Origin: an uncultured Planctomycetales bacterium
Lineage (GTDB): Bacteria; Omnitrophota; Gorgyraeia; Gygaellales; Profunditerraquicolaceae
Reading direction: 5' to 3'
Assembly: GCA_964545575.1 (NCBI GenBank)
Contig: CAZJFL010000005.1
Span: forward strand, 8,617-72,616
DNA: 64,000 nucleotides
Shown: one piece after another, positions 27,135-55,031 of the stretch
How positions within the stretch are numbered: position 1 is the first letter of the stretch
How the letters are laid out: every line of letters begins with the position of its first letter
Translations under genes and position numbers: made by a program
The notes under the pieces: model-generated
Databases searched by the model: none
The model's input: only the letters and a program-made list of their open reading frames with translations
What the model was told of the DNA's origin: nothing

Positions 27135-28166
27135 ATGGTTTTATTATTTCCGTTGCCGTTAATATTGATATTTTTACTGGTTCTGGCTCTTTTATCTTTT
27201 TTCTTTTCCGCTTCTGAAACCGCCATCATCGGCTTAAGCAAGATCAGGCTGCGCAATATGATCCGTAAAGGCATAAAACGGGCCCAGAGTATACAGAACC
27301 TGATTACCAAGCTGGATAAGTTCATCGCAGCCATCCTTATAGGTAATGATTTCGTAAACATCGCAATTTCTGCCATTGTCACCGCAATATTCGTTCAGGT
27401 CTTCGGTTACCGCTGGGGCGTGGTCATCGCTACTTTTAGTTCTACTTTCTTCGTCCTTATCCTCTGCGAAATAACTCCTAAAATATTAGCCATCAAGCAT
27501 GCTGAAAAAATAGCCCTTTTTACCGCCCCAATTATGGAATTATTTATTCGCGTCTTCAAGCCGATTATCCTGATTTTTACGGTAACCAGCAGCGTGATCT
27601 TAAGGGTATTCGGCATAAAGCCGGTAAAGCGCTCTCCGTTGATTACTGAAGAGGAATTGCGCATGATGATCGAGGTAGGCAAGGAGGAGGGTGTTTTAAG
27701 CGAGCAGGAAAGGAAGATGCTGCATCGTATCTTTGAATTTGGCGATACTAAGGTAGCCGACGTGATGGTACCGAAGGGAAAAATCATCGCAGTCAATATA
27801 AACTCTAGCGCCGAAGAAGTACTAAACATCTTTGCCGAAGAGGGCCACGCCAGGCTTCCGGTTTATTCCGGGTCTATCGATAATATCGTAGGCATGCTTT
27901 ATGCCCGCGACCTGCTTTATATCTTAAAGGACAAGGGATTATTTTTATTGCAGGATTTATTGCATGCGATATATTTTGCTCCCGGAAATATGCGCGTAAA
28001 TGAGCTTCTGATTAAGTTTCAGGCCGAAAAAATACAGATTGCAGTCATCGTGGATGATAAGAAAAATACCTCCGGTATAGTCACCCTTGAAGATCTGATC
28101 GAGGAAATAGTGGGGGAGGTCAAAGAAAAGCACACTAGGCATAGTTCCGGCCGCCCCAAAAATTAA
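27135..28166 (+). CDS. CNNM/HlyC-CorC-family membrane protein (DUF21 + CBS pair), apparently without the C-terminal CorC_HlyC domain
   Basis: 4-TM DUF21 N-terminus; tandem CBS modules (VADVMVPKGKIIAV..., VIVDDKKNTSGIVTLEDLIEEIVGE). Confidence 0.7.
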   Translation: MVLLFPLPLILIFLLVLALLSFFFSASETAIIGLSKIRLRNMIRKGIKRAQSIQNLITKLDKFIAAILIGNDFVNIAISAIVTAIFVQVFGYRWGVVIATFSSTFFVLILCEITPKILAIKHAEKIALFTAPIMELFIRVFKPIILIFTVTSSVILRVFGIKPVKRSPLITEEELRMMIEVGKEEGVLSEQERKMLHRIFEFGDTKVADVMVPKGKIIAVNINSSAEEVLNIFAEEGHARLPVYSGSIDNIVGMLYARDLLYILKDKGLFLLQDLLHAIYFAPGNMRVNELLIKFQAEKIQIAVIVDDKKNTSGIVTLEDLIEEIVGEVKEKHTRHSSGRPKN

Positions 28167-28178
28167 TTATATTTTTTC

Positions 28179-28207
28179 TTGACATTATTTATTAAATATG
28201 ATAAAGT
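28179..28207 (+). promoter_or_regulatory. candidate sigma70 promoter TTGACA-17-TAAAGT upstream of the 28234 membrane protein
   Basis: cttgacattatttattaaatatgataaagt read directly. Confidence 0.4.
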
Positions 28208-28233
28208 TAGACAAAATATAAAGGAGGTGGAAG

Positions 28234-28911
28234 ATGAGTAATTGGAATGCAGTTTTAGTGGAACCAGCCAAGCTCGTGCTTTTCCAGATCGGGCAGTTCC
28301 TAGTGAGCGTGCTTCTGGTAATTATTATCCTCATCATTGGTTGGTTGATCGCAAAACTCATCAAAGCACTGGTTATAAAGGTGCTAAGGGTGGCGAAACT
28401 CGATGACCTTTCCGACCGTATCGAGTTGGATAGCTTGTTAGCCAAGGGCGGCATCGGATATTCGCTTTCCGAACTGATCGGCGCGATTTGCTACTGGCTG
28501 GCGCTTTTAGTCACCTTCATGGTCGCTATCAATGCTATAGGTTTAACTATTGCTGCGGACCTGTTGAATAAGATAGTCCTCTATATACCTAATATTATTG
28601 CGGCAATATTCATCCTGATATTGGGTATGTTTATATCTACAATCGTGAGGAATATCGTTCAGACAGCAGCTAATAACGCGGGCCTGGATTATGCTAAGGT
28701 TTTAGCAAAAATAGTTGATATCGCGGTGATGGTTTTTGCAGTAGCCATTGCTTTGGAACAGCTCAACATCGGCTCCAGCATGATTCAGCTAACCATCAGT
28801 GTAATATTAGGCGCTATAGGTTTAGCCATAGCTTTAGCCTTCGGCTTAGGCTGCAAAGATATCGCGGCTAAGTCTATGTCAGAGTTTATTGATAAGCTAA
28901 AAAAGAAATAA
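28234..28911 (+). CDS. small multi-TM membrane protein, possibly a TM-helix-repeat (mechanosensitive-channel-associated, PF05552-like) protein
   Basis: 225 aa, 4-5 predicted TM helices with repeated A/I/L-rich helices; no enzymatic motifs. Confidence 0.45.
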   Translation: MSNWNAVLVEPAKLVLFQIGQFLVSVLLVIIILIIGWLIAKLIKALVIKVLRVAKLDDLSDRIELDSLLAKGGIGYSLSELIGAICYWLALLVTFMVAINAIGLTIAADLLNKIVLYIPNIIAAIFILILGMFISTIVRNIVQTAANNAGLDYAKVLAKIVDIAVMVFAVAIALEQLNIGSSMIQLTISVILGAIGLAIALAFGLGCKDIAAKSMSEFIDKLKKK

Positions 28912-28933
28912 TGTTGGTTGTTTGAAACCTATT

Positions 28934-28976
28934 TAACCCCCTGCTCTCGTTTTGAGGGCAGGGGGTTAATATTTTT
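28934..28976 (+). terminator. rho-independent terminator (AACCCCCTGC ... GCAGGGGGTT stem, then AATATTTTT)
   Basis: Inverted repeat plus T run read directly after the 28234 gene. Confidence 0.6.
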
Positions 28977-29000
28977 AGGGCGGCTTTTTAAAAAAAACCT

Positions 29001-30293
29001 ATGCTTTTCATAAAAAAAACGCCGGTAGAGCTATCCATAATATTGCCTGTATGCAATGAAGAAAAGAACTTGGCCGTCCTTCTCCCTGATCTTAAAAAAA
29101 AATTACAGGCCTGTGTAAAGTCGTTTGAAATTATTGTAGTTGATGCCGGCTCCAAAGATAATAGCGTAAGCATTGCTAGCAACTTAGGGGCTAAGGTATT
29201 TGTGCAGAAGCAGAAAAAATTTGCAGCCGCTATTAAGGAAGGAATAGAGGCCTCTTGCGGTGAGTATGTGATAACGTTGGATGCGGACAATTCTCATCCT
29301 CCGGAACTGATCCGGGAATTGATCGATGCCATAAAAGAAGCCGATCTGGTTATCGCTTCGAGGTATATCAAAGGAGCTGTTTTCCGGACTAATATATTCA
29401 GGAGGATGGGCAGCCAGCTATTAAATAAAATCTTCAAATATATTCTTTCCCTATCCGTAAACGACTTGTCAAGCGGTTTCAGGATATACCGGCGAGAGGT
29501 ATTAAAGGGCATTCAAATAGAATCGCAGGGTTTTGACATAGAATTAGAGACACTCATAAAAATAATTAGTGCCGGTTGGTGTGTTAAGGAAATTCCGTTA
29601 TCATACAAAAAAAGATTGTTCGGACGATCAAAGGCGAGCTGGAGTAATTGCGTAGCATTTTTTAAAACGTGCATTAGGATGTATAAATTAAGGAATTCTA
29701 TACTTTCAGGCGACTATGATGACCGTGCTTCTAGCAGTAAATTATTGCTGCAGAGGCTCTGGCATAAATATAAAGATAGGATGGCATTTGAATATGTAAA
29801 AAAGGAAGCATTCTCTCTGGATGCCGGATGCGGTTCGGGAAGCTTTATCCAGAATTTTAGTAACGTTGTAGGCTTAGATACGGATATGAATAAGGCACGA
29901 TACCTTAAGCGCGCCAAAGGATTAAAAAATCATATTCCGTTAGGAAGCATCACGGATATGCCCTTTAAAAACGAAACGTTTGAGCAGGTTATGTGCTCAG
30001 AGGTTATAGAGCATGTCCCTAAAGTAGGCAGGGTATTTCGGGAGTTCTGGCGAGTGCTTAAACCTAATGGCAGACTGATTATTACCACGCCGGATTATGG
30101 CCGGCCTATTTGGCCTTTTTTCGAATGGTTTTACCATAAGGCCATACCGGATGGTTATGCGGATCAGCATATCAGCCATTATGATTATAACGAATTACAG
30201 CGATTACTCAAAGACAATAATTTCGAGATCATCGACCACAGGTCTTTTCTTGGCGCTATAATTATTCTGAAAGCAAAAAAGCGTGGCGCCTAA
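29001..30293 (+). CDS. bifunctional GT2 polyprenyl-phosphate glycosyltransferase (DPM1/ArnC-like) fused to a class I SAM-dependent methyltransferase
   Basis: N-terminus LSIILPVCNEE...VVDAGSKDNS...LDADNSHPP (GT2 DxD context); C-terminus LDAGCGSGSF...VMCSEVIEHVP...LKPNGRLIITTPD (Methyltransf_11-like). Confidence 0.7.
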   Translation: MLFIKKTPVELSIILPVCNEEKNLAVLLPDLKKKLQACVKSFEIIVVDAGSKDNSVSIASNLGAKVFVQKQKKFAAAIKEGIEASCGEYVITLDADNSHPPELIRELIDAIKEADLVIASRYIKGAVFRTNIFRRMGSQLLNKIFKYILSLSVNDLSSGFRIYRREVLKGIQIESQGFDIELETLIKIISAGWCVKEIPLSYKKRLFGRSKASWSNCVAFFKTCIRMYKLRNSILSGDYDDRASSSKLLLQRLWHKYKDRMAFEYVKKEAFSLDAGCGSGSFIQNFSNVVGLDTDMNKARYLKRAKGLKNHIPLGSITDMPFKNETFEQVMCSEVIEHVPKVGRVFREFWRVLKPNGRLIITTPDYGRPIWPFFEWFYHKAIPDGYADQHISHYDYNELQRLLKDNNFEIIDHRSFLGAIIILKAKKRGA

Positions 30294-31596
30294 ATTGAGT
30301 ATGCAGATAATGAATTTTTGGAATCAGCCGTTTGTGAAAAAGACCGTTACCGTATCTATTTTTTTAACATTATCAGTGGGCATATTTCTTCGTATCAATA
30401 ACCTCAATAACGTCAATTACAGAACGCCGGACGAAGTTACATATACCTACCAAGCTACAGAAATAGCCAGGTTTGGCACTGGTGCTGTGAAAATATTGGT
30501 TTCCGAATATAATAATGATAATAGGTCCTGGTTTTATCCATCTCCGATCCGCATCGGATATATTGGTTTAGTTGCCGTCATTATGAAAATGACACATACC
30601 CTGGGTGATGAAAGAGCAGGGGCTTATGTGGCGTGCTTTTTTAGCATCATCGGCTTATTGATTCTCATAGCGGCGGGTCTTAAGTTTTTAAATCCGTACA
30701 TAACTTTATTCGGCCTTATTTTTTTAAGTGTCTCACCGATGGACCTGGCTATTGCAAGGCGCGCATGGCAGGACGCCATGCTCGGGAGCCTGGCGGCATT
30801 ACTTATTTACTTATCCTGCGCAATAACGAGTTCCCGCCGCAAAATAATATTGTACGCGTTATTTGTGTTCACGGGAAGTTACTGTATTTTGATTAAAGAA
30901 TCCGGCACTATAATTTATACGATATGTTTGTTATGGGTCCTCTGGATGCTATCGGTCAAGAAGCGGTTATTCCCGGAAGGGGTTTTTTTAACAACCGCAA
31001 GCATTTTGGGCGGATGCCTCAGCATTACCGTCCTTGCTTATATTGGCGGCGGTTTTCCGGTCATTATAGAGGCTTTGAAACATCATCTGGGATCGATACC
31101 AAATAACCAATATGCGCTGATATATCAATCCGGACCATGGTACAATCTTCCGCTGGGGCTCTGGATAGTAGATCCGGTAAATACGATTTTGTGTCTTATC
31201 GGCACCATTACAGCGCTCTTTAATGGCGTGTCTAACCTAAAAAATTTAGACGAGCAAGATTACGAAAAACGATTTGCTGTGCCCGGGATAGCATTTTTTA
31301 TGATAGCGTTTCTGGCTATTACCATGCTTGCCCCGCATTGTCAAAACCTGAGATATTTAAGCGTTTTATACGTGCCGTTTTATCTTATGGCTGGATTGGG
31401 ACTATGGCGTTTTATTTTGTTTTGCAAAAACAGGAAAAATACATTACTTTTTATGATTATCGCTGCAGCCGTTTTTGGAATAATAATTACAACGGCAATA
31501 GGAAACTATTTAATTTTCAAGAATCTTTTTGTCGATGTAGGGCTCAATGACCTCTCGGTTAATCTGTTAAAAAAATACGCCCTTATTGTCAGATAA
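30283..31596 (+). CDS. GT-C-fold membrane glycosyltransferase (ArnT/PMT-like, GT39/GT83-like)
   Basis: About 11 predicted TM helices; first-loop acidic motif YRTPDEVTY; immediately downstream of the GT2 fusion. Confidence 0.6.
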   Translation: MAPKLSMQIMNFWNQPFVKKTVTVSIFLTLSVGIFLRINNLNNVNYRTPDEVTYTYQATEIARFGTGAVKILVSEYNNDNRSWFYPSPIRIGYIGLVAVIMKMTHTLGDERAGAYVACFFSIIGLLILIAAGLKFLNPYITLFGLIFLSVSPMDLAIARRAWQDAMLGSLAALLIYLSCAITSSRRKIILYALFVFTGSYCILIKESGTIIYTICLLWVLWMLSVKKRLFPEGVFLTTASILGGCLSITVLAYIGGGFPVIIEALKHHLGSIPNNQYALIYQSGPWYNLPLGLWIVDPVNTILCLIGTITALFNGVSNLKNLDEQDYEKRFAVPGIAFFMIAFLAITMLAPHCQNLRYLSVLYVPFYLMAGLGLWRFILFCKNRKNTLLFMIIAAAVFGIIITTAIGNYLIFKNLFVDVGLNDLSVNLLKKYALIVR

Positions 31597-31688
31597 TAAG
31601 ATCGAAAGGTGGGGTGTCCCATTGAGGACGGGAGGACGGGGACGTTTCCCAAAGGGACAGCATAATAGTACATAACCATTGTAATATA

Positions 31689-32879
31689 ATGAATAACAAG
31701 GGTGTGCATATAAGAACTTTCGGCTGCCAAATGAATGTCCGCGATTCGGAAGTCATCTGCGGGCTGCTAAAGAAAGAGGGGTATAAAATAGTAGACGAGC
31801 CGAAGAAGGCAGATATCCTAATTTTTAATACCTGTTCCGTCAGGCAGCATGCAGAAGAAAAAATTTGGTCGGCGTTAGGTAAACTCAGGGTTCATAGTTT
31901 AGCTAAGCCCACAATTGGGCTTATCGGCTGTATGGCACAGAATTACAAAGAGAAAATTTTTGAACGCGCGCCAAACGTTGATTTTGTAATCGGCCCATCC
32001 GATATTGCCAAGATTCCTGAGATGATTTCACGGTTCACGGTTCACGGTTCTCGGTTATCGCAATCAGGAAATAAACGAACACCGAACACCGAACACCGAA
32101 CACCGAGCGCTGAGCTCTTTGAGCGCAAAATCTGGGAAACTGATGGCGATATCCGGCCGGAAGAAATTTATCATACCGGATTTTACGAAGACAAAAATCA
32201 CGCCTATGTGGTCATTTCCGAGGGCTGCTCTAATTTCTGCTCTTATTGCGTAGTGCCTTATGTGCGGGGCCCTTTACATAACCGAAATCATAAGGATATA
32301 TTAAAAGAGATAGAAGGGGCAGTGGAGCAGGGTATAACCCGGATTACCCTTCTGGGGCAAAATGTTAGCGCTTATAAAGATAATCAAGTTGGGTTCGTGG
32401 AATTAGTTAAATTAGTTGAATTAGTGAAGGGGTTGGAGGAGTTTAGTTTTATTACATCTCATCCGAAAGATACATCGGCCGAGCTGTTTAAAGCCATGCG
32501 CGATAGGGGAAAATTAAAAAAATACCTGCATCTTCCGGTGCAGTCCGGATCAGACCGGATTTTGCAATTGATGAACCGCGGATACACCCGAAAATTTTAT
32601 TTAGGTTTAATAGATAATTATCGTAAAGTAGTAAAAAATGGCGTGTTGACTACGGATATAATTGTTGGCTTTCCGGGCGAGACCGAAGATGATTTCAAGG
32701 ATACATATAATTTAGTTAAAGAGGTACAATTTGACGCGGCCTATATTTTTAAATATTCTCCCCGGCCGAATACCCAAGCCGAAAAGTTAGGTGATGGTGT
32801 GCCTAAAAACGAGAAAGAGAGCAGGCACGCGCTTATACTAGAATTGCAGAAGAAGATATCTAAGAGTAAAAAATGTTAA
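31689..32879 (+). CDS. miaB: MiaB-like radical-SAM methylthiotransferase (tRNA-i6A37 2-methylthiolation); about 25-aa linker insertion; TRAM domain apparently absent
   Basis: MTTase N-domain cysteines (FGCQMN...NTCSVR...GCMAQ), radical SAM CSNFCSYCVVPY; only 396 aa; miaA two genes downstream. Confidence 0.75.
   Translation: MNNKGVHIRTFGCQMNVRDSEVICGLLKKEGYKIVDEPKKADILIFNTCSVRQHAEEKIWSALGKLRVHSLAKPTIGLIGCMAQNYKEKIFERAPNVDFVIGPSDIAKIPEMISRFTVHGSRLSQSGNKRTPNTEHRTPSAELFERKIWETDGDIRPEEIYHTGFYEDKNHAYVVISEGCSNFCSYCVVPYVRGPLHNRNHKDILKEIEGAVEQGITRITLLGQNVSAYKDNQVGFVELVKLVELVKGLEEFSFITSHPKDTSAELFKAMRDRGKLKKYLHLPVQSGSDRILQLMNRGYTRKFYLGLIDNYRKVVKNGVLTTDIIVGFPGETEDDFKDTYNLVKEVQFDAAYIFKYSPRPNTQAEKLGDGVPKNEKESRHALILELQKKISKSKKC
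32027..32061 (+). repeat. (TTCACGG)x3 + TTCTCGG + TTATCGC heptamer array inside the miaB-like linker
   Basis: ttcacgg ttcacgg ttcacgg ttctcgg ttatcgc read directly. Confidence 0.9.
32076..32103 (+). repeat. (CGAACAC)x4 heptamer array inside the miaB-like linker, 15 nt after the previous array
   Basis: cgaacac cgaacac cgaacac cgaacac cgag; encodes NTEHRTPNTEHRTPS-like low complexity. Confidence 0.9.
32399..32425 (+). repeat. 9-nt tandem repeat GAATTAGTT-AAATTAGTT-GAATTAGTG inside miaB-like (encodes ELVKLVELV)
   Basis: Read directly. Confidence 0.8.
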
Positions 32880-42569: not shown

Positions 42570-43673
42570 ATGGCGCAGGTAAGCCTAAAGGATGTTTCAA
42601 AGGTCTTTACCAACGGAAACCGCGTAGTCAATAACGTAAACCTTGGCGTAGAGAATAAGGAGTTTATGGTTTTGGTCGGCCCTTCCGGATGCGGTAAATC
42701 CACGACCCTGCGCATGATTGCGGGTCTCGAAGACATCACTAAGGGTGATATCTACATCGGCAATAAGCGCGTAAATGATATACCGGCCAAAGACCGCGAC
42801 ATCGCCATGGTCTTTCAGAATTATGCCCTTTATCCGCATATGACGGTTTTTGAAAATATGTCCTTTGGTTTAAGATTACGGCATTATCCGAGGGCCGAAA
42901 TTACCCAGCGGGTCAAAGAGGCAGCGGATATTTTAGGTATAAAGCACCTCTTGGACCGCAGGCCGCGCGAGCTTGCCGGAGGCGAGAGGCAGCGCGTTGC
43001 CGTAGGCAGGGCAATCGTCAGAAAGCCGCTGGTATTTTTATTCGACGAGCCTTTAAGCAACCTCGACGCAAAATTACGCGTGCAGATGCGCACCGAGATT
43101 CATAAATTGCATATCCGGCTGCAGACCACCATTATTTACGTTACCCATGACCAGGTGGAGGCCATGACCATGGGCGACCGCATTGCGGTAATGCGCGATG
43201 GCGTTTTACAGCAATTAGCCGATCCGATCACGGTTTACGACCATCCTAAAAATAAGTTTGTGGCTGGTTTTATCGGTTCGCCCCCGATGAGTTTCATGAA
43301 AGGCCGGATTATAAAAAAAGAAAACCGGCTCTATTTTGACGAAGGCAAGATTCAGGTAAGGATTGTCGAAGATATGCACGTTAAGCTCAAAGGGTATCTA
43401 GAGAGGGATATCATCTTCGGCATCCGCTCCGAAGATATCTATGATAAATTATTTGTTTCCGAGGCGCCCCAGGAGAATATCGTCAGGGTAAATTGCGAAG
43501 TCGTCGAACCCATGGGCTCGGAGGTTTATCTGTATCTCAATACCGGAAAGCACACCTTTATCGCGCGGGTCGGCGCGCATGATAAGCCTCAGGTTAACCA
43601 GGACATAGACGTAGTGTTTGACATGAGCAAGGTGCACTTTTTTGATAAAGATACCGAAGAAACCATCATCTAA
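42570..43673 (+). CDS. ABC transporter ATP-binding protein, MalK/UgpC-like, with C-terminal TOBE-type regulatory domain; no permease or binding-protein genes adjacent
   Basis: Walker A GPSGCGKST, signature LSGGERQRVAVGRAI, Walker B LFDEPLSNLD, 367 aa. Confidence 0.8.
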   Translation: MAQVSLKDVSKVFTNGNRVVNNVNLGVENKEFMVLVGPSGCGKSTTLRMIAGLEDITKGDIYIGNKRVNDIPAKDRDIAMVFQNYALYPHMTVFENMSFGLRLRHYPRAEITQRVKEAADILGIKHLLDRRPRELAGGERQRVAVGRAIVRKPLVFLFDEPLSNLDAKLRVQMRTEIHKLHIRLQTTIIYVTHDQVEAMTMGDRIAVMRDGVLQQLADPITVYDHPKNKFVAGFIGSPPMSFMKGRIIKKENRLYFDEGKIQVRIVEDMHVKLKGYLERDIIFGIRSEDIYDKLFVSEAPQENIVRVNCEVVEPMGSEVYLYLNTGKHTFIARVGAHDKPQVNQDIDVVFDMSKVHFFDKDTEETII

Positions 43674-44982
43674 ATATAAAAATCTTTTTTCTTCCTTGGC
43701 GAATTCCCCTCTCCTTAAAATTGCTGTTTCCGGAGCCTCGCTGTTCCTTTTTTACATACTCCTGCCCGTAGGATTAATCACCCGCGCTAAACCGGTACGT
43801 CTTTTATGGTTATTTATATTTTATTTGGCTGTTTGCGCGAGCCTCGTTTATTTGCTGCAGAAAAACTCCGGCAGAAAACGCAGGCTCCAGCTTAAGACCG
43901 AGGACATAGAGGAGAAAACAAACCTCTTAAACATCGAGTATGCCAAAGGAATCAAGAATCAGATTGCCCTGCAGGAAAAAATCAAGCGTTATAACAGCCT
44001 AAAGAGCATCATCGAGGAGATAAATCAGAATCCCGCCCTGGAGGCGATAGCCAACCGCCTTTGCGAAATAACCTTCTCTTTGATTTCGCGCCAGAAAGGC
44101 ACCTGTATACTTTATTTGGTCGACCCCGAGACCCATAAACTCTGCCTTTTTAAAACCAAAAAAGAAGACGAGGCAGTAGTAGTCAAGGCAAAAGAAGGAG
44201 ATGCTTTTGATCTGTGGGTCTTAAGGCATTCCAGCCCCCTGATCATCGAGGACGTAAAGAAAGACTTCCGTTTTGACCCGGATAAATTAAAAAGAGAAGA
44301 TAGCCGGCAGTTTTTTTCCCTGATCAGCGCACCCTTAATCAGCGAAAATAAGTTTTTAGGTATCTTAAGGCTGGATAACCCCACAGCAGGGTTTTATTCT
44401 CAGGATGATTTAAGGTTTTTAGTGACCATTGCTGACTTGGGTGCGGTAGCCTTGGAAAACGGAGAACTTTTTCAGAAGATGCAGGATCTGGCTATACACG
44501 ACGGGCTGACCCTGCTTTATACCAAAGGTTACTTTTTAGAGCGCCTGAAAGAAGAGTGCAAAAGAAGCATCCGCCAGGATACCGCTCTCTCCTTATTAAT
44601 GCTGGATATAGACCACTTTAAAAACTACAACGATACCTTCGGGCATACCGCAGGAGATATAGTCTTGAAAAAAATAAGCCTGGATATATCGGATTTTTTA
44701 AAAGAGGCAAATCCCATCATCAGCCGTTTCGGGGGCGAGGAGTTTTGTATTGCCCTTATGCGCACAGATAAAAAAAAGGCTAGAGTTTTAGCGGAGCAGC
44801 TAAGGGCGAGGATAGAAAAGACCCGTATCGTCCTGCGCCGTCAGGAAACCAAAATAACCGTTTCTATCGGAGTAGCGAGCCTCGGTAAAGACACCAGCGA
44901 AGAAGATGAACTGATTATGCGGGCGGACCAGGCGATGTATGAGGCAAAGCAGAAGGGCAGAAACCGGGTATGTGGAATATAG
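43642..44982 (+). CDS. membrane-anchored GAF-GGDEF diguanylate cyclase
   Basis: Two N-terminal TM helices, coiled coil, GAF-like region, GGDEF domain with RFGGEEF active-site motif. Confidence 0.8.
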   Translation: MIKIPKKPSSKYKNLFSSLANSPLLKIAVSGASLFLFYILLPVGLITRAKPVRLLWLFIFYLAVCASLVYLLQKNSGRKRRLQLKTEDIEEKTNLLNIEYAKGIKNQIALQEKIKRYNSLKSIIEEINQNPALEAIANRLCEITFSLISRQKGTCILYLVDPETHKLCLFKTKKEDEAVVVKAKEGDAFDLWVLRHSSPLIIEDVKKDFRFDPDKLKREDSRQFFSLISAPLISENKFLGILRLDNPTAGFYSQDDLRFLVTIADLGAVALENGELFQKMQDLAIHDGLTLLYTKGYFLERLKEECKRSIRQDTALSLLMLDIDHFKNYNDTFGHTAGDIVLKKISLDISDFLKEANPIISRFGGEEFCIALMRTDKKKARVLAEQLRARIEKTRIVLRRQETKITVSIGVASLGKDTSEEDELIMRADQAMYEAKQKGRNRVCGI

Positions 44983-45968
44983 CGGTATTGGCATTATTGA
45001 CTGTTTTCTTTTATCTCTGGCTTAAATCTACTCTCGATAACAATTTTTTAAAGGGCCAGAGGCACTATGACGATATCAACGTAAAATACAACGGATTATT
45101 GCAGGATAATACGCGCCTAGAGGAGGAAAACGCGGGCCTGGAAGAAAAGGTCGAATATAATGTCGCCCTTTACGATATTACCAGAGCGCTTTGTAAATCT
45201 TTGGAAGAGGAAAAAGTATTTGCTATTTTTAAGGAGCAGTTAAAGAAGTACATCGGGGTAAGCGATTGTAAGTTTACCAGAGAAGATATAGAGCCGCAAG
45301 AATATAAAGAAAAAACCGTCGTCCCTTTAAAAATAGATAAGGATAATCTGGGCCTTTTGATTGTGGGCGGGATAAGAGAGCGAGATTTGGATACCTTCAA
45401 TATCCTGGCCCAGCAGTTTCTCCTGGGGGTTAAGCGGGCTATTTTATACCAGCGCGTCCAGGCCATTGCCATTACCGATGGCCTGACACAGGTTTTCAGC
45501 CGCCGGTATTGCCTGGGAAGGTTCCGGGAAGAAATAGAACGATCAAAGAAGTTCAAGCATAACTTTTCTTTTATGATGATTGATATAGATTATTTCAAGA
45601 ATTATAATGACCGATACGGCCATTTGGTGGGAGACGCGGTCTTAAGAGAAGTAGCTGATACCATCAAGGAGAGCGTCAGGCAGATAGACCTGGTCGGCAG
45701 GTACGGCGGCGAGGAGTTTTTGATTATTTTGGTTGAGACCGCAGCCCAGCAGTCCGGGTTTGTTGCCGAACGTATCCGCAAGGCGGTCGAAGATAGGCAG
45801 ATCAAGGTATACGATGAGGACATTAAGGTTACGATCAGTATCGGAGTAGCTACTTTCCCCGAAGACGCCCGGGAGCCCCAAGCTATAATTGAGCGGGCAG
45901 ACAGGGCCCTCTACCGCGCAAAAGAAGCCGGCAGGAATAAGGCCTGCCTTTACAGCGATACTAAGTAG
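44970..45968 (+). CDS. membrane-anchored GGDEF diguanylate cyclase (paralog of the upstream gene)
   Basis: N-terminal TM helix, coiled coil, GGDEF domain with RYGGEEF motif. Confidence 0.8.
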   Translation: MWNIAVLALLTVFFYLWLKSTLDNNFLKGQRHYDDINVKYNGLLQDNTRLEEENAGLEEKVEYNVALYDITRALCKSLEEEKVFAIFKEQLKKYIGVSDCKFTREDIEPQEYKEKTVVPLKIDKDNLGLLIVGGIRERDLDTFNILAQQFLLGVKRAILYQRVQAIAITDGLTQVFSRRYCLGRFREEIERSKKFKHNFSFMMIDIDYFKNYNDRYGHLVGDAVLREVADTIKESVRQIDLVGRYGGEEFLIILVETAAQQSGFVAERIRKAVEDRQIKVYDEDIKVTISIGVATFPEDAREPQAIIERADRALYRAKEAGRNKACLYSDTK

Positions 45969-46943: not shown

Positions 46944-49088
46944 ATGCAAAAATATTTAAAATTATTTAATTTTGTTTTTTTAGTTTGGATTTTGATATTT
47001 GGATTTTGGATTTATGCATCTGCCCAGGCGCACAAAGACTCGATAATCATTAACGGCGATACCGTGGAATACTCCACAGAGAAAAATGAAGCTACCGCCA
47101 TAGGTAACATTGTGATAAATTACAAAGGCGCGATACTCACCTGTGATAAGTTAACGATCAATACCCTCACCAAAGAAGGTATTGCCGAGGGAAACGCAAA
47201 GCTAGAAGATGAAAGGGGGGTTATTACCGGTTCCAAGATCACTTATAATTTTAATACTAAGGCCGGTACGATCATTGACGCCGGTTTCCGGTCTAATCCT
47301 TATTTCGGCAAGGCCGAAAGGATAGAAAAGATAAACGATCGGGAGTTTATCTCGCTTGGCGGTTATATGAGTACCTGTAACTATGACCATCCGCACTACA
47401 GCATCGGGTCAAAAAAGATAGATTTCTTCCCCAAAGATAAAGTAGAGATTAAGGGCGCTGCGGTTCATCTTTTGGGTATCCCGATATTATATCTGCCCAA
47501 ATTTACCCATAGCCTGGTTGAGGATAGACCTAAAATAATGAATATACAGGTCTCTCCCGGCATGAGAAAAGAATGGGGCCCTTATCTGCTTACCGGCTGG
47601 CGTTATAACCTTACGGAAAACATTATGGGCAGGCTTTACCTGGATTACCGCTCGAAGCTGGGGGTAAGCGAAGGCGTGGGTTTTAATTATAGGTCGCCGG
47701 TGGGCAACGGAGACTTTAAGTTTTATTACACCCAGGAACATCCGCAAAACCATCCCGTAGAAGGCCCTGATGAGTTTGAAAGGTATTTTGCGCGCCTACG
47801 CCATAAATGGGATATAGACAAACGCACGAATCTCACCGTAGAGTATTATAAGATCGCCGACCAGGAAAGAAGGCTGCCTCTCTATCCGGGCGATTTATTA
47901 AAAGATTATTTTTACCGCGAATACGAAAAGAATTCCCAGCCGGTATCTTACGCCCTGCTTTATCATAATTTCAGTTATTCCAGCCTCGGCTTGCTTTTAC
48001 AGAGGCGCACTAACCACTGGTATGAACAGCTCAATAAAACCCCGGAGCTGTCTTATAGTTTGCCCAGCATACGTATCGGCAGCACCCCGTTTTATTTTGA
48101 AAACAATACTACCGCCGCAAACTTTGACAAAAAGGCAACCACCTACCCTTACACCAGCGATGATGTAACCGTATCCAGATTTGATACCAGCAATACCCTT
48201 TCCCTGCCGCTTAAGCTATTCTTTGTAGAGTTTACGCCCTTCGTAGCCGGACGCGAGACTGTCTATGATAAGGGCGCAGGCGGTTTTTCCGTTCCGAAAA
48301 GGACGATATTCTCTGGCGGGGCAAACTTAAGCACCAAAATTTTCCGCCTATTTGATGTTAAATCGGATTTCTTGGGGCTAGATATAAACGGCATCCGGCA
48401 CATCATTACGCCGATAGTAAAGTATGTCTATAACCACCGACCGACCATCTCCGCCAGCAAGCTTCAGCAGATAGATGCGATTGATTCTCTCGCTGCAAGC
48501 GAATATATCTCTTTGGAATTATCCAATAAACTGCAGACAAAGAGAGAAGGAAAGGCTGTAGACCTGGCGAACTTGCGCATAAACACGTTATACAATTTGA
48601 AGACTAAAGACGGCCCCGGCTCAAGTTTTTCCGATTTTTACCTGGATCTGGAATTGCGCCCTTATGCATGGCTGCGTATTAAGTCCGACGCTAGCTACGG
48701 CTATAAAGAAAAATACTTTAAGGAAGCCAACGTCAATTTATACGCTACCTTAGGTAAAGAAAGGTATCTAGGCGTCGGCCACCGGTATTTGAGGGGCGGC
48801 GGCAAAGAGATGACTTCGGAATTGGCCTGGCGGCTGAACCCTAAGTGGAAATTCAAGGTATACGAACGTTATCAATTTGCAGATTCCCAGAGCCGCGGAC
48901 TGATGGAACAGGAATATACATTAACCCGCGACCTGCATTGCTGGGAGACCGATATCAGTTATAATATCAGTAAAACAGACGGCCATACCCTGTGGTTTGT
49001 GTTCAGGTTAAAGGCCTTTCCGGAGCTTGAGTTTGGCTTCCAGCAGAGTTACCACCCGGATCAGTCAGGCTCCCAATCTAACCCTTAA
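46944..49088 (+). CDS. lptD: LPS-assembly outer-membrane protein LptD
   Basis: Signal peptide; OstA-like N-domain (IINGDTVEYSTEKNEATAIGNIVINYKGAILTCDKLTIN...); about 600-aa beta-rich C-terminal domain. Confidence 0.75.
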   Translation: MQKYLKLFNFVFLVWILIFGFWIYASAQAHKDSIIINGDTVEYSTEKNEATAIGNIVINYKGAILTCDKLTINTLTKEGIAEGNAKLEDERGVITGSKITYNFNTKAGTIIDAGFRSNPYFGKAERIEKINDREFISLGGYMSTCNYDHPHYSIGSKKIDFFPKDKVEIKGAAVHLLGIPILYLPKFTHSLVEDRPKIMNIQVSPGMRKEWGPYLLTGWRYNLTENIMGRLYLDYRSKLGVSEGVGFNYRSPVGNGDFKFYYTQEHPQNHPVEGPDEFERYFARLRHKWDIDKRTNLTVEYYKIADQERRLPLYPGDLLKDYFYREYEKNSQPVSYALLYHNFSYSSLGLLLQRRTNHWYEQLNKTPELSYSLPSIRIGSTPFYFENNTTAANFDKKATTYPYTSDDVTVSRFDTSNTLSLPLKLFFVEFTPFVAGRETVYDKGAGGFSVPKRTIFSGGANLSTKIFRLFDVKSDFLGLDINGIRHIITPIVKYVYNHRPTISASKLQQIDAIDSLAASEYISLELSNKLQTKREGKAVDLANLRINTLYNLKTKDGPGSSFSDFYLDLELRPYAWLRIKSDASYGYKEKYFKEANVNLYATLGKERYLGVGHRYLRGGGKEMTSELAWRLNPKWKFKVYERYQFADSQSRGLMEQEYTLTRDLHCWETDISYNISKTDGHTLWFVFRLKAFPELEFGFQQSYHPDQSGSQSNP
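46984..47011 (+). repeat. (TTTGGAT)x4 heptamer array (one TTTGATA variant) encoding the LptD signal-peptide core ILIFGFWI
   Basis: tttggat tttgata tttggat tttggat read directly. Confidence 0.85.
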
Positions 49089-49092
49089 AAAG

Positions 49093-50394
49093 ATGAACAT
49101 CTCTATTATAGGTTCGGGTTATGTGGGTTTAGTCACCGGCACCTGCCTTGCGGAGCTGGGCAATAAAGTCGTCTGTTGCGATAACGACATAAAAAAGATC
49201 ACGGCTCTTAAAAAAGGCATGATGCCGATATATGAGCCGGGATTGGAAGAATTGGTGAGAGCCAATGTGAAAAAGAAAAAGCTCTCCTTTACCCACAGTT
49301 TTAAAGAAGCGGTCGCTAATTCCGAGCTGATTTTTATTGCCGTGGGCACGCCCTCCCTGGAGAACGGCGATGCCGACCTGACCGGAATAGAAAATGTGAC
49401 GCGTAATATCGCCATCAATATGACCGGTTACAGGCTAATCGTGGAAAAATCCACGGTCCCGGCCGAGACCGGAGAGCGCATTAAACAGACCGTATCCAGT
49501 CACCTGCAGAAGAGAGTAAAATTTGACGTTGCCTCAAATCCGGAGTTTCTGCGGGAGGGGCAGGCAATCAATGATTTTATGCATCCGGACAGGATTGTGA
49601 TCGGCGTAGAATCCAAAAAGGCCAGGGATATGCTGGTAAGCCTTTATAAGCCTTTAAATGCGCGCCTGGTGATAACCGACATTAAGTCCGCAGAGTTGAT
49701 AAAACATGCCTCCAATTCTTTCTTAGCTACCAAGGTCTCCTTTATTAATGCCATTGCGCGTATCTGCGATAAGCTGGGAGCGGATGTGCAGGAAGTAGCA
49801 GAGGGCATGGGATTAGATAAAAGGATAGGGCAGGCATTTTTAAACGCCGGAATCGGATACGGGGGAGCTTGTTTCCCCAAAGATTTAGATGCCTTTATCT
49901 ATATCTGTAAAAGACTAGGTTATGATTTTGAATTGCTGAAAGCAACCAGGGAAATTAACCGCCAGCAGAAGAACGAGTTTTTAAACAAGATACACGATGG
50001 GCTATGGGTAATTAAAGATAAGGCTATCGGCGTCTTGGGGCTCGCTTTTAAACCCAACACCGACGACATACGCAATGCCCCGTCTCTGGATATAATAGAT
50101 GCCTTAATCGCGCAAGGCGCCAGATTAAAGGTTTACGACCCTCAGGCAATGAAAAAAACTAGAGGCCTGTTGGGTGAAAGGGTGAAGTTTTGCCGTGATC
50201 CCTACGAGGTATGCCGGGGGAGCGAATGCCTCTTAGTTATTACGGAGTGGGATGAGTTTAAGGAGTTGGATTTTTCTAAAGTCAAAAAATTGCTCAAGAG
50301 GCCGTTGGTTATCGACGGCCGCAATATTTATGACCGTAAGATCATGAAAAAATTAGGGTTTACTTATATCACTATGGGCAGGGGGGAAACCTAA
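49093..50394 (+). CDS. ugd: UDP-glucose 6-dehydrogenase (ORF track start 49027; ATG at 49093 preferred)
   Basis: MNISIIGSGYVGLVTG Rossmann N-terminus; catalytic Cys context GGACFPKD. Confidence 0.85.
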   Translation: MNISIIGSGYVGLVTGTCLAELGNKVVCCDNDIKKITALKKGMMPIYEPGLEELVRANVKKKKLSFTHSFKEAVANSELIFIAVGTPSLENGDADLTGIENVTRNIAINMTGYRLIVEKSTVPAETGERIKQTVSSHLQKRVKFDVASNPEFLREGQAINDFMHPDRIVIGVESKKARDMLVSLYKPLNARLVITDIKSAELIKHASNSFLATKVSFINAIARICDKLGADVQEVAEGMGLDKRIGQAFLNAGIGYGGACFPKDLDAFIYICKRLGYDFELLKATREINRQQKNEFLNKIHDGLWVIKDKAIGVLGLAFKPNTDDIRNAPSLDIIDALIAQGARLKVYDPQAMKKTRGLLGERVKFCRDPYEVCRGSECLLVITEWDEFKELDFSKVKKLLKRPLVIDGRNIYDRKIMKKLGFTYITMGRGET

Positions 50395-50404
50395 AAGGAA
50401 TAGT

Positions 50405-51715
50405 ATGGCTAACTTTATGAAAAGTTTCTTAAAAAGGTTAAAGAAAAAAGAGGTTAAAATTGCCGTGGTGGGCTTAGGCTATGTGGGGTTGCCGCTGGTG
50501 CTCGAGTTTATAAAAAAAGGGTTTTACGTATTGGGGGTAGATCTAGATAAAGACAGGATAGCCGGGATTCAACAGAGGAAATCATACATTACCGATGTTT
50601 CCGACACGGATTTGCGAAAAGCCATAGCAAGCGGAAGGTTTCGTGCTACGGGAGATTTTCATTTGTTAAAGCAGGTTGATGTAATTCTTATCTGTGTGCC
50701 TACGCCGCTAAAAAGAAAATATCTTCCGGATATATCTTTTATCAAAGGCGCCGTCAGAGAAATCTTGGTAAATATGAAACAGGGCGCTTTGATTATTCTG
50801 GAAAGCACCACCTATCCCGGCACCACCGAAGAGGTCATCCTGCCTTTGCTTGAATCGCGCGGCTCTCAGCACGGTAGGGATTTTTATCTCTGTTTCTCTC
50901 CCGAGAGGATAGACCCGGGAAACGCCAAATACCCGCCCCAGAAGATCCCCAAAGTTATCGGCGGCATTAATCAGGAAGCGACTACGCTAGGAAAAGCAGT
51001 TTACGCAAGTATCATTAAACAAGTCGTTCCCGTATCTTCTTCCCGGGTTGCCGAAACAGTGAAGTTACTGGAAAACACCTTCCGTATCGTTAATATCGGC
51101 TTAATCGATGAAATAGCGATGATGGCGCATAAAATGAAGATAGATATCTGGGAAGTGGTCGAGGCGGCCAAAACTAAACCTTTTGGTTTTATGCCTTTTT
51201 ATCCCGGCCCCGGCGTGGGCGGCCACTGCATACCAAAAGACCCGCTCTACCTTTATTGGAAGGCGAAAAGGTTCGGCTTCCGGTCGCGTTTTATCAAGCT
51301 CGCCTCCGAGGTAATCGCCGCTATGCCCGAATATGTGGTAGAGAGGGTCGCTAGTATTTTGAGTAAAGAAAGGATAAGCCTGGCTCAAGCCGAGATTCTG
51401 GTCTTAGGGGTAACCTATAAGAAAGATATCAAAGATTTGCGTCAGTCTCCGTCCATAGATATTATTGAAATATTAGAAAAGAAGGGCGTATCCGTTTCTT
51501 ACCATGATCCGCTGATCCCGTATCTCAAATTAAACCGCATAAATCTTAAATCCGCCGATTTAACCGCTGCCAATCTTAATAAGTTGGACTTTGTGATTAT
51601 CGCCACCGATCACACTTCGGTCGATTACAGATTTATATTAAAGCATTCGCGGCGGGTCTTTGATACCCGTAATGTCTATAAAAATATTAATCAGGGAAGA
51701 GTCTTTAGGCTATGA
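50405..51715 (+). CDS. UDP-N-acetyl-D-glucosamine/mannosamine dehydrogenase family (WbpA/WecC-like)
   Basis: VKIAVVGLGYVGLPL ... GGHCIPKD catalytic Cys context; 436 aa. Confidence 0.75.
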   Translation: MANFMKSFLKRLKKKEVKIAVVGLGYVGLPLVLEFIKKGFYVLGVDLDKDRIAGIQQRKSYITDVSDTDLRKAIASGRFRATGDFHLLKQVDVILICVPTPLKRKYLPDISFIKGAVREILVNMKQGALIILESTTYPGTTEEVILPLLESRGSQHGRDFYLCFSPERIDPGNAKYPPQKIPKVIGGINQEATTLGKAVYASIIKQVVPVSSSRVAETVKLLENTFRIVNIGLIDEIAMMAHKMKIDIWEVVEAAKTKPFGFMPFYPGPGVGGHCIPKDPLYLYWKAKRFGFRSRFIKLASEVIAAMPEYVVERVASILSKERISLAQAEILVLGVTYKKDIKDLRQSPSIDIIEILEKKGVSVSYHDPLIPYLKLNRINLKSADLTAANLNKLDFVIIATDHTSVDYRFILKHSRRVFDTRNVYKNINQGRVFRL

Positions 51716-52665
51716 AGAAAGTTTTAGTTACCGGAGGCGCAGGGTTCATCGGTTCGCACTTGACCGAGGCTTTAGTGAAAAGAGGCTATTCTGTCAGGGT
51801 CTTGGATAATTTCTCAAGCGGTAAAAGAGATAACCTAAAAGGCCTGATAAATAAAATAGATTTAATCAGGGGCGATATTCGTTCTCTCGCCGTCTGCCAG
51901 AGAGCGGCAGGAGGCATAGACCTGATTTTTCATCAGGCGGCTCTGCGCAGCGTCCCTAAGTCGCTGGCTCATCCGGCAGAATATAATGAAGTCAATATCC
52001 AGGGCACTTTAAACCTATTGCAGGCAGCGGTTAAAAATAAGGCGAAACATTTCATCTTTGCTTCCTCCAGCTCCGTCTATGGAGATGTCAAAACTTTTCC
52101 CGAAAAGGAAGATTTTGTTCCGCAGCCGATCTCTCCTTACGCCCTGACCAAGCTTACCGGAGAATATTATTGCCGGATGTTTAGTTATCACTACCGCTTG
52201 CCTACGGTGGCTTTAAGGTACTTCAATGTGTTCGGGCCCCGGCAGTCTTTAGACGACGAGTATGCCGTGGTCATACCGAAGTTTATCAGCTGCATGTTAA
52301 AAAACGAGCCGCCTCCGATATTCGGCACAGGCAGGCAGTCAAGGGATTTTACCTACGTAGAAAATGTGGTGCAGGCCAATATTCTGGCAGCGGCCAAGAC
52401 CGGGCTTAAGGGAGAGGTTTTTAATATCGCCGGCGGCAGGGACTACAGTATCTTAGAGTTAGTCAGGATACTCAACAGTATAATGGGTAAAAAAATAAAA
52501 CCGGTTTTCTTAGGCCTGCGTCCGGGGGATGTATTCAGGACTCAGGCGGATTTAACCAAGGTAAGGCGGGTTTTAGGTTTTCAGCCGAAGGTGGATTTTA
52601 TTAGCGGGCTGGAATCATCCATTAATTCGCAGACGCTGATAGATAAGCAAAATGAGGGACGCTAA
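51712..52665 (+). CDS. NAD-dependent nucleotide-sugar 4-epimerase (GalE/WbpP family)
   Basis: [13 protein letters not shown]..., YxxxK context SPYALTKLTGEYY, 317 aa extended SDR. Confidence 0.75.
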   Translation: MKKVLVTGGAGFIGSHLTEALVKRGYSVRVLDNFSSGKRDNLKGLINKIDLIRGDIRSLAVCQRAAGGIDLIFHQAALRSVPKSLAHPAEYNEVNIQGTLNLLQAAVKNKAKHFIFASSSSVYGDVKTFPEKEDFVPQPISPYALTKLTGEYYCRMFSYHYRLPTVALRYFNVFGPRQSLDDEYAVVIPKFISCMLKNEPPPIFGTGRQSRDFTYVENVVQANILAAAKTGLKGEVFNIAGGRDYSILELVRILNSIMGKKIKPVFLGLRPGDVFRTQADLTKVRRVLGFQPKVDFISGLESSINSQTLIDKQNEGR

Positions 52666-53976: not shown

Positions 53977-54004
53977 TAGAAAAAAGGGAGGAGGTTTATT
54001 ATAA

Positions 54005-54400: not shown

Positions 54401-54418
54401 GTTGTCTGCTCATTTTAC

Positions 54419-55003: not shown

Positions 55004-55031
55004 AACAACTTGTTTGTAGCAAAGAATCAGA

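Follow-up and report, generated by a model that had tools for sequence, protein, structure and literature searches.

A GT2–methyltransferase fusion encoded beside a minimal GT-C glycosyltransferase: a candidate unit for extracytoplasmic glycosylation

Two adjacent genes in the 64,000-nucleotide stretch of DNA analysed here (the window), which is assigned to Candidatus Omnitrophota by the names that homologs and their loci carry, encode, respectively, a glycosyltransferase of family 2 (GT2) fused to a class I SAM-dependent methyltransferase (MT), and a polytopic membrane protein of the GT-C fold. On balance we lean towards the view that the two genes act as a single unit in extracytoplasmic glycosylation, by way of a lipid-linked, and possibly methylated, sugar. 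The parts are of known kinds; the building of a methyltransferase into the donor-making enzyme looks like a new and widespread twist. O-antigen seroconversion, the modification of lipid A (and with it polymyxin resistance), the decoration of teichoic acids and protein O-mannosylation all depend on glycosylation in the periplasm from polyprenyl-monophosphate sugars. A first-pass annotation, made from the sequence alone, had likened the gene pair to the logic of ArnC/ArnT or Ppm1/PMT, a comparison for which homology, fold and gene context now give good support. What we observe directly, and set out below, is the identity and fold of each domain, the intactness of the catalytic motifs, and the conserved association of GT2, MT and GT-C.

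Both open reading frames lie on the + strand where they had originally been placed, the fusion gene at 29001..30293 (430 aa, with Pfam domains in both halves) and the second frame at 30283..31596 (437 aa when counted from a GTG). The 11-nt overlap reported for the two genes holds only with GTG 30283 as the GT-C start, and the ATG at 30310 is in better agreement both with database gene calls (P0001, 428 aa) and with the alignment to relatives. From that ATG the GT-C gene (30310..31596, +) encodes 428 aa and begins after a 16-nt gap from the fusion stop at 30293. The genes are tightly linked whichever start is chosen. The 5′ boundary of the two-gene unit is set by a terminator-like hairpin (28933..28969, +; a 17-bp stem with nine G-C pairs, followed by a T-run), which ends the upstream MscS-like gene.

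The first half of the fusion (29025..29693, +; residues 9–231) is a GT-A-fold GT2 domain of the polyprenyl-phosphate glycosyltransferase type, and here the matches to Pfam and to solved structures agree with the DPM1/ArnC-like identity first given to it. Pfam Glycos_transf_2 spans residues 12–169 (8e-29), and a phmmer search of the PDB returned as the best relative 5mlz (2e-25, residues 9–231), the dolichyl-phosphate mannose synthase (DPMS) of P. furiosus, followed by ArnC (3e-16) and GtrB (5e-14). Foldseek gave the same order for the GT2 half of an AlphaFold model of the fusion (pLDDT 90.9, pTM 0.87), with 5mlz at 2.6e-16 (rmsd 2.1 Å over 237 columns, 30% identity), then ArnC and GtrB. The best NCBIfam matches all fell under their equivalog cut-offs, namely AglJ (106.7 bits vs a cut-off of 325), DolP-hexose transferase (81 vs 375), ArnC (76 vs 529) and PpgS (50 vs 370). 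The ArnC score indicates that the fusion is not an ArnC ortholog, and, judged by these profile matches, the GT2 half is a member of the broad polyprenyl-phosphate glycosyltransferase class and the ortholog of no named enzyme. The metal-binding DXD motif is present as D94-A-D96 (29280–29288) and the acceptor-loop motif as DLSSGFRIY (residues 155–163), with D94, D155, R161 and Y163 invariant across 48 homologs. A crude hydropathy scan found no transmembrane (TM) segments in the fusion, and a hydrophobic-moment scan for an interface helix returned nothing specific. In place of the C-terminal TM anchor that GtrB, ArnC, the P. furiosus enzyme and type I/III DPMS have, the fusion continues from its GT2 domain into the MT domain; both human DPM1 and PpgS are likewise free of TM helices.

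The second half (29706..30290, +; residues 236–430), comprising the MT domain with a conserved linker/lid, is an intact class I SAM methyltransferase by both Pfam and motifs, which bears out the original description of the gene as a fusion. Methyltransf_11 matches residues 273–361 (1e-18; 68 bits, cut-off 21) and Methyltransf_23 residues 252–412 (2e-16; 60 bits, cut-off 27), with Methyltransf_25 and _31 likewise above their gathering scores. Motif I reads D274-A-G-C-G-S-G (29820–29840), and the acidic D293 follows strand 2. Across the 48 homologs D274, G276, C277, G278, D293, E337 and H390 are invariant in the MT domain, as are R231, D238, Y239, D240 and R242 in the linker. The conservation of motif I and of the pocket-like residues H390, Y386 and E375, which do not vary among 48 sequences as distant as 38% identity, points to retained MT catalysis in the window fusion's own family.

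We considered and rejected a quinone methyltransferase of the UbiE, MenG or UbiG type for this half, an identity that, with no link to glycosylation, the first-pass annotation had named as telling against its own reading. The corresponding models match at only ~30–41 bits vs curated cut-offs of 103–420 (UbiG 41 vs 103; MenG_MenH_UbiE 38.6 vs 158; UbiE models 29–34 vs 216–378), there are no quinone genes near the fusion, and the relatives are mostly fused to GT2. Among the 150 closest representatives out of 1.84 billion proteins, 98 have the GT2-MT architecture and one has MT-GT2; thus the clade is tied to this glycosyltransferase and not to quinone synthesis. Foldseek matches of the MT half include 3l8d, MitM, PMT and PmtA, and the solved structures closest to it belong to generic methyltransferases of small molecules or lipid head-groups (3l8d, MitM, phosphoethanolamine and PE N-methyltransferases, a GPP C-methyltransferase), with no sugar O-methyltransferase among them. 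Classification by the closest characterised homologs therefore places the domain in class I, and stops short of the choice between sugar O-methyltransferase and lipid methyltransferase that had been hoped for; O-, N- and C-methylation are indistinguishable here, since sequence and structure searches gave generic class I methyltransferases alone.

The GT-C protein has no match in Pfam, NCBIfam or the PDB even at E = 10, and a profile built from its family found no PDB sequence; its identity is thus not readable from a domain search, and fold prediction was needed. The AlphaFold model (44 homologs in the alignment; pLDDT 93.6, pTM 0.93) matched STT3, ArnT, ALG9, EmbA/B, AglB, PglB, AftB and Pmt4 in Foldseek, all with probability 1.0 and TM-scores of 0.52–0.62. 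On the strength of this model we are confident that the second gene encodes a GT-C fold protein. The model has ~11–13 membrane helices, short loops and no soluble periplasmic domain. An R-T-P-D-E motif (30421..30435, +) follows directly on TM1, within the first extracytoplasmic loop, at the expected site of GT-C catalytic acidic residues, and R38, D41 and E42 (numbered from ATG 30310) of the family motif R-[ST]-P-D-E are invariant in the 44 aligned sequences. PF13231 (PMT_2) is matched by 34 of the 44 family members, with weak scores (best 5e-10), the window protein itself being unmatched. Fold model, family PMT_2 matches and motif together uphold the early call of a polytopic GT-C enzyme with an RTPDE loop. 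GT-C enzymes use lipid-phosphate-linked donors (PMC11127046).

Whether the gene pair is co-conserved had been raised from the outset as the other point on which its interpretation could fail. The same pair occurs in one relative (L121, 75% and 71% identity), and a GT2 and/or MT gene directly flanks the GT-C ortholog in 20 of the 27 evaluable loci: 13 have an MT-GT2 fusion, one has MT and GT2 as separate genes, two have MT alone, and four have a GT2-bearing gene without an intact MT. The usual partner is thus a fusion in the reverse order, 565 aa long, the GT2 domain of which also matches AglJ, PpgS and DPMS. Its identity to the window fusion is only 23–28%, from which it follows that GT2, MT and GT-C have come together on more than one occasion. 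In a neighbour-joining tree without support values, used to examine a possible 'in-situ displacement' of an ancestral MT-GT2 gene by GT2-MT, the window GT-C branches beside, not inside, the MT-GT2-partnered clade, a placement compatible with change in either direction.

The alternative that survives best leaves the pairing of donor synthase and GT-C as it is, and makes the MT mainly a structural, oligomerisation or SAM-sensing module, or has it methylate an unrelated substrate. We regard this as unlikely, if worth keeping in view. The domain sits where GtrB, ArnC and DPMS have their TM anchor, and as such a module it would stand in for the C-terminal membrane helices that join GtrB and ArnC tetramers; against this stand the invariance of motif I, the strand-2 acidic residue and H390/Y386/E375 in the 48 sequences of the window family, and the MT genes that remain beside GT-C though unfused (L015, L023, L033). 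The partner fusions speak for it. Five of the 16 MT-GT2 partners, all in one subclade (L030, L034, L035, L036, L038), have lost the SAM-binding glycine loop, with motif I destroyed and ~20 residues deleted, and nevertheless keep the MT domain and intact GT2 motifs; this GT-C family can thus do without methylation, and the structural neighbours of the MT offer no hint of a sugar substrate. Were the MT non-catalytic, the family would still show a soluble domain replacing the membrane anchor of GtrB-type enzymes.

For the reading we prefer, with a catalytic MT, we infer a lipid carrier, sugar, methylation target and acceptor as follows. At the cytoplasmic face the GT2 domain would charge polyprenyl (undecaprenyl) phosphate with a hexose-type sugar taken from a nucleotide sugar, in the manner of DPM1, GtrB and ArnC, and the fused, apparently active MT would most likely methylate the lipid-linked sugar head-group or the nucleotide-sugar precursor, a step analogous to the cytoplasmic-face tailoring carried out by ArnD, NaxD and AglP. 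A flippase would carry the lipid-linked sugar across the membrane, and at the periplasmic face the GT-C would pass the (methyl)sugar to its acceptor by means of the Asp-Glu pair in the first outer loop. There is no GtrA or ArnE/F-like flippase gene in the two-gene unit, and an EamA/ArnE-like gene (114 aa) was seen only at one locus (L037); the flippase could be encoded elsewhere in the genome, beyond the 64-kb window. The lack of a soluble domain in the GT-C makes a folded protein a less likely acceptor than a glycolipid embedded in the membrane (LPS, lipid A-core or another lipid-linked glycan). The presence of LptD in the window indicates that the organism makes LPS, and an acidobacterial GT-C ortholog adjoins lpxK, kdtA and a GT9 gene.

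That same lipid A and core context, together with the missing soluble periplasmic domain in the window GT-C and most of its family (PMT, STT3, PglB and TMTC each have one), argues against protein O-glycosylation of the Ppm1/PMT or TMTC type, in which the GT-C would glycosylate Ser/Thr residues of periplasmic or surface proteins, for example pilins, and not a glycolipid. We consider this improbable. The PMT_2 matches in the GT-C family would fit it, but they are weak and do not extend to the window protein. The C-terminal TPR found in only three distant family members (P0057–P0059) would suit protein acceptors, TPR-bearing membrane proteins are frequent neighbours, and a polytopic TPR protein is encoded in a pilin-like locus elsewhere in the window. 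The suggestion that the genome invests in GT-C glycosylation more generally proved weak, its second candidate (55071–57032) being polytopic, with TPR repeats and no PMT_2 match.

Three-component periplasmic glycosylation is outlined, in the work of Mann & Whitfield (2016) as cited in PMC11127046, as a GtrB-type GT2, a GtrA-type flippase and a GT-C enzyme. The window unit resembles such systems in having a polyprenyl-phosphate-type GT2 encoded beside a GT-C, and in the implied lipid-monophosphate sugar made inside and used outside. It differs from them in that it contains no flippase gene, its GT2 is fused to a SAM methyltransferase and is devoid of TM helices, and its GT-C is minimal (~430 aa) with no periplasmic domain.

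ArnC, ArnD, ArnE-F and ArnT make up the lipid A aminoarabinose pathway, to which LgmA-C and FlmF2/NaxD/FlmK are related. The likeness here is of an ArnC-like GT2 paired with an ArnT-like GT-C, one ortholog of which lies near lipid A/core genes. Both would also tailor the lipid-linked sugar at the cytoplasmic face ahead of flipping, the known systems by deformylation or deacetylation and the window unit, as we propose, by methylation. The differences are that the tailoring enzyme here is an MT and is fused, that the window locus has no arnA, arnB or arnD genes, and that ArnT has the periplasmic domain that the window GT-C does not. With Ppm1/PMT and eukaryotic DPM1/PMT the unit shares a DPM1-like GT2 (DAD..H and SGFRxY motifs, closest to a solved DPMS) and a GT-C family with PMT_2 matches and a loop-1 D-E pair, although the window GT-C fails the PMT_2 model and is without the MIR/loop-5 domain. 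In M. tuberculosis Ppm1 the GT2 is fused to an Lnt-like domain, where the window GT2 is fused to an MT.

In haloarchaeal N-glycosylation there is already a case of a glycan that is methylated by a SAM-dependent enzyme while attached to a lipid phosphate, ahead of its passage across the membrane. There AglJ, the best NCBIfam match of our GT2 half, is a Dol-P hexosyltransferase, and AglP is a SAM methyltransferase acting on the glycan while it is linked to dolichol phosphate, with transient 3-O-methylation in Halobacterium salinarum (PMC4335974). The differences are that the pathway is archaeal, its enzymes are separate proteins, an oligosaccharide is methylated, and the STT3-type AglB transfers to protein Asn.

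At least 525 metagenome loci carry a member of the GT2-MT family, which has at least 120 full-length homolog clusters. In 14 of 41 evaluable loci (about one third) the gene right next to the fusion encodes a polytopic protein, and seven of the ten such neighbours scanned were GT-C types (PMT_2 in four, DUF2079, YfhO and GT87); PMT_2 neighbours also occur at L039 and L122. The enrichment over distal genes of the same loci is modest (18/122 vs 21/298, p = 0.017). Neighbour clustering around 80 fusion loci recovered other GT2 and GT4 enzymes, PBP5, TPR-membrane proteins and PMT_2 proteins as recurrent, and no recurrent tailoring enzyme (deacetylase, aminotransferase) or flippase.

WsaE and WbdD are methyltransferase–glycosyltransferase chain terminators, similar to the window fusion in that a SAM methyltransferase is fused or coupled to glycan-building enzymes, yet they act in the cytoplasm on growing Und-PP-linked polymers, have GT domains of types other than DPM1/GtrB, and are not known to pair with GT-C enzymes. 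WbdD is mentioned in PMC11127046. That the fusion likewise builds polysaccharide or caps its chains in the cytoplasm, and lies next to a GT-C merely through a shared envelope-glycan neighbourhood, might be read from the GT2, GT4 and ABC-transporter ATPase genes often found around the family and from the many GT2-MT genes without an adjacent GT-C, but is very hard to credit given a GT2 half specifically closest in sequence and structure to DPMS, ArnC, GtrB, AglJ and PpgS, and an association that recurs with at least five GT-C families in two fusion orders.

We put forward more tentatively, as a reading that may well be wrong, that the MT yields a methylated polyprenyl-phosphate monosaccharide donor from which several GT-C families then place methyl-sugars on envelope glycolipids or proteins in the periplasm. 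In the papers that could be searched, mainly from outside the subscription journals, no methylated lipid-linked donor class is described for bacterial GT-C enzymes, and none of them reports a GT-C paired with a GT2-MT fusion. Methylation could serve as a commitment or flipping signal, by analogy with Halobacterium, where dolichol-linked glycans have to be methylated transiently. If the donor is indeed methylated, the three-component paradigm would be extended by a new tailoring step, perhaps with new donor chemistry, and glyco-engineers would have a compact cassette. The large GT2-MT family, with its two domain orders and several GT-C families, suggests a common and unstudied route to methylated surface sugars in environmental phyla. 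The taxa named for the methylated-donor reading are Omnitrophota, Acidobacteria, Nitrospirae and Deltaproteobacteria.

A strong terminator-like hairpin (28933-28969; a 17-bp stem, then a T-run) lies directly 5' of two tightly linked plus-strand genes, so that the two appear to form a transcription unit of their own. The first gene (29001-30293; 430 aa) encodes a GT2 glycosyltransferase domain fused to a C-terminal SAM methyltransferase (MT) domain, here GT2-MT, and the second (30283-31596; 437 aa from GTG) a polytopic glycosyltransferase, here the GT-C. Both open reading frames and their tight linkage are as described in the first-pass annotation, but its 11-nt overlap is less likely than a 16-nt gap: gene calls in databases and the alignment of relatives both point to ATG 30310 as the probable GT-C start. 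By ORF and domain annotation the pair is set among unrelated housekeeping genes, with trpB, trpA, an M16 peptidase, a CNNM/CBS protein and an MscS-like membrane protein on the 5' side and miaB, miaA, hflX, hrcA and grpE on the 3' side. The gene directly upstream, beyond the hairpin (28234-28911, plus strand), encodes a 225-aa membrane protein built entirely from repeats of the 'MscS conserved TM helix' unit (two PF05552 matches; 86 bits for NCBIfam msc, under the cut-off of 100), without the MscS beta/cytoplasmic domain. Over 28-32 kb G+C is about 0.41, lower than the 0.45-0.50 of the flanking sequence. A second such stretch (~0.41) lies at 54001-58000, with 0.45-0.50 elsewhere in the window; polytopic glycosyltransferase-like genes occupy both (28001-32000, 54001-58000), and membrane-protein composition or horizontal acquisition could account for the low values.

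The fusion had been read as a DPM1/ArnC-like GT2 joined to a class I MT, and Pfam bears this out: residues 12-169 match Glycos_transf_2 (8e-29), and residues 252-412 match Methyltransf_11, _23, _31 and _25, all above gathering scores. The closest solved relatives of the GT2 half are the Pyrococcus furiosus dolichyl-phosphate mannose synthase (PfDPMS) 5mlz (2e-25, residues 9-231), ArnC and GtrB; its top NCBIfam matches are AglJ, a haloarchaeal Dol-P hexose transferase, ArnC, PgfS and PpgS, each scoring far under the equivalog cut-off. An AlphaFold model built with 48 homologs is confident as a single body (pLDDT 90.9, pTM 0.87), and its GT2 half fits 5mlz best (2.1 Å over 237 columns, 30% identity), then ArnC and GtrB. 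Across the GT2-MT family the DAD motif (D94-D96) and a DLSSGFRxY loop are invariant or nearly so, as are, in the MT, motif I (D274, G276, C277, G278), D293, E337 and a C-terminal cluster (Y366, W371, E375, Y386, H390); the linker between the domains is also unusually conserved (R231, D238-Y239-D240, R242). Given this conservation of MT and linker residues, the MT looks catalytically competent. No TM helix is predicted in the fusion, and the MT domain takes the place of the membrane helices of GtrB, ArnC and PfDPMS.

Searches of Pfam, NCBIfam and PDB with the GT-C sequence gave no match up to E = 10, and the profile of its family matched no PDB sequence. Its homologs form 61 clusters, nearly throughout from Candidatus Omnitrophota and in some sources named ArnT family or GT39, and PF13231 (PMT_2) is matched by 34 of the 44 aligned family members. 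The AlphaFold model (pLDDT 93.6, pTM 0.93) resembles STT3, ArnT, ALG9, EmbA/B, AglB, PglB, AftB and Pmt4 (probability 1.0, TM-scores 0.52-0.62). The RTPDE loop pointed out in the first-pass annotation recurs in the family as R-[ST]-P-D-E directly after TM1, with R38, D41 and E42 invariant, at the site where GT-C enzymes carry catalytic acidic residues. By predicted structure and family context only, the protein is a polytopic GT-C, as proposed; in the model it is a minimal one, with 428 residues, nearly all in membrane helices, and no soluble periplasmic domain.

The suggestion that the two genes would be conserved together was borne out from the GT-C side. We scanned the ORFs of 25 loci from GTDB species genomes and several metagenome contigs with HMMs of the window GT2 half, the MT half and the GT-C family, and a GT2 and/or MT gene directly adjoined the GT-C ortholog in 20 of 27 evaluable loci. 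The partner was a fusion in reverse order (MT-GT2, ~565 aa), immediately downstream, in 13 loci, separate MT and GT2 genes on both sides in one (L015), MT only in two (L023, L033) and GT2 without an intact MT in four (L031, L036, L037, L038); in two more (L014, L017) the partner lay one gene away. The MT-GT2 proteins share only 28% (GT2) and 23% (MT) identity with the fusion of the window, and the best matches of their GT2 are likewise AglJ, PpgS, Dol-P hexose transferase and PfDPMS. The window arrangement itself is kept in locus L121, with a 75% identical fusion, a 13-nt overlap and a 71% identical GT-C. That GT2, MT and GT-C occur together in two fusion orders and also as split genes argues strongly, on grounds of gene context, that they serve one pathway.

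Several of these loci hold further genes. The gene separating GT-C ortholog and partner in L014 (9235-10698) encodes a B12-binding radical SAM protein, a class that includes C-methylases. L037 (6713-10353) combines a distant GT-C family member, a stand-alone DPM1-like GT2, a PIG-V-like mannosyltransferase and an EamA/ArnE-like protein of 114 aa with four helices; these make up a full three-component-type set, with no MT. The ortholog in an Acidobacteria MAG (L012, 1-6479) lacks a GT2 or MT neighbour; the genes beside it, from which it is divergently oriented, are those for an MFS transporter, kdtA (Glycos_transf_N), lpxK and a heptosyltransferase-like GT9 gene. Further polytopic proteins of 450-730 aa are common in the Omnitrophota loci (L008 7949-11227; L010 2756-4825 and 8572-10029; L021; L024), some with TPR tails and mostly without a Pfam match; these may be more GT-C-like enzymes drawing on one donor synthase.

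The GT2-MT family is far larger than the GT-C family, with at least 120 clusters of full-length coverage (37-75% identity) in Omnitrophota, Nitrospirae, Acidobacteria and Deltaproteobacteria, and at least 525 metagenome loci. Among 41 loci flanked by 1.3 kb or more on either side, a same-strand polytopic protein was directly adjacent in 14 and within two genes in 18. The enrichment is modest in these loci, where glycan genes are abundant (18/122 vs 21/298 for genes at least three positions off; odds ratio 2.3, p = 0.017). Ten polytopic neighbours were scanned: four matched PMT_2 (one with TPR), and the others DUF2079, YfhO/DUF6541, GT87, a TPR membrane protein, DUF7024 (weakly) and nothing. 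Fusion relatives 55-58% identical to that of the window adjoin another PMT_2 protein (536-543 aa), whose sequence is unrelated to that of the window GT-C, and other GT2-MT genes have no GT-C nearby. With such varied GT-Cs among its neighbours, the fusion behaves like a portable donor module.

The MT need not always act as an enzyme. The glycine-rich SAM loop (G-x-G-x-G) is lost in 5 of 16 MT-GT2 partners, all directly downstream of a GT-C ortholog: L030, L034 and L035 read GCRDD there, with a ~20-residue deletion, whereas L036 and L038 read SCADE. Both GT2 motifs, HPDYQYDP and EYHSGFRAY, are perfectly conserved in four of these (L030, L035, L036, L038), the L034 protein ending with its contig before the second motif, and those loci with downstream sequence carry an extra stand-alone GT2 (~230-250 aa). 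With the GT2 motifs outlasting the loop, this GT-C family can do without methylation, and the MT domain is able to persist as a non-catalytic module. This persistence keeps alive the alternative that its role is partly structural, for example standing in for the membrane/oligomerisation helices of GtrB-type enzymes.

As for the kind of methylation, the MT half (residues 236-430) had 63 relatives at E ≤ 1e-30 among 1.84 billion representatives, and the best 150 included 98 GT2-MT, one MT-GT2, four MT-MT and 41 short MT-only proteins, part of them fragments. Its closest structures (3l8d, an uncharacterised Bacillus MT; MitM; plant phosphoethanolamine N-MTs; TM1293; geranyl-diphosphate C-MT; bacterial PE N-MT) did not settle the substrate class. 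Clustering of neighbouring genes revealed no recurrent deacetylase or aminotransferase near GT2-MT loci, which weakly favours a neutral sugar over an amino sugar. Scores of 29-41 bits against UbiE, MenG and UbiG (cut-offs 103-420) and the predominance of GT2-fused relatives do not fit a quinone-type MT unconnected with glycosylation.

By homology to DPMS, ArnC and GtrB, the GT2 domain would synthesise a polyprenyl-phosphate sugar on the cytoplasmic side, and the fused MT would then methylate the sugar head-group or its precursor. There is archaeal precedent: AglP methylates Dol-P-linked glycans, and in Halobacterium a transient methylation step is obligatory (PMC4335974). A flippase would move the lipid-linked sugar across the membrane; none was found within the 64-kb window, and in L037 the EamA/ArnE-like gene completes a system of this kind. 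Finally, the GT-C, with its modelled fold and acidic motif, would transfer the sugar at the periplasmic face. A membrane-embedded glycolipid is one candidate acceptor, consistent with the lack of a soluble domain in the GT-C, with LptD in the window and with the lpxK, kdtA and GT9 neighbours of the acidobacterial ortholog. A protein is the other, to which the TPR repeats of a few GT-C family members and many neighbours point.

The pair shares its logic with 'three-component' periplasmic glycosylation systems and ArnC/ArnT (PMC11127046), and its components carry generic database names (dolichol-phosphate mannosyltransferase, ArnT family, GT39). In the literature searched we found no description of a SAM MT fused to a donor synthase, of the two domain orders or of the recurrent pairing with GT-C enzymes; thus the components are known in kind and their combination is apparently new. 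A putative role in periplasmic glycosylation offers a clear, cheap-to-test hypothesis on a widespread family.

Elsewhere in the window, plus-strand genes at 46944-53640 encode LptD, then two UDP-glucose/GDP-mannose dehydrogenase family proteins and two SDR epimerases/dehydratases; LptD (LPS transport) and these sugar-nucleotide genes show LPS production by the organism, and the dehydrogenase and SDR genes could supply unusual nucleotide sugars. The protein previously called a TMTC-like GT-C (55071-57032, plus strand; 653 aa, ~10 N-terminal TM segments) adjoins pilin-like genes (57511-61077) and has C-terminal TPR repeats as its only Pfam matches, without PMT_2, which leaves that label tentative. 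At 43642-45968 (plus strand), two successive genes encode GGDEF diguanylate cyclases, of which the first also has a GAF domain.
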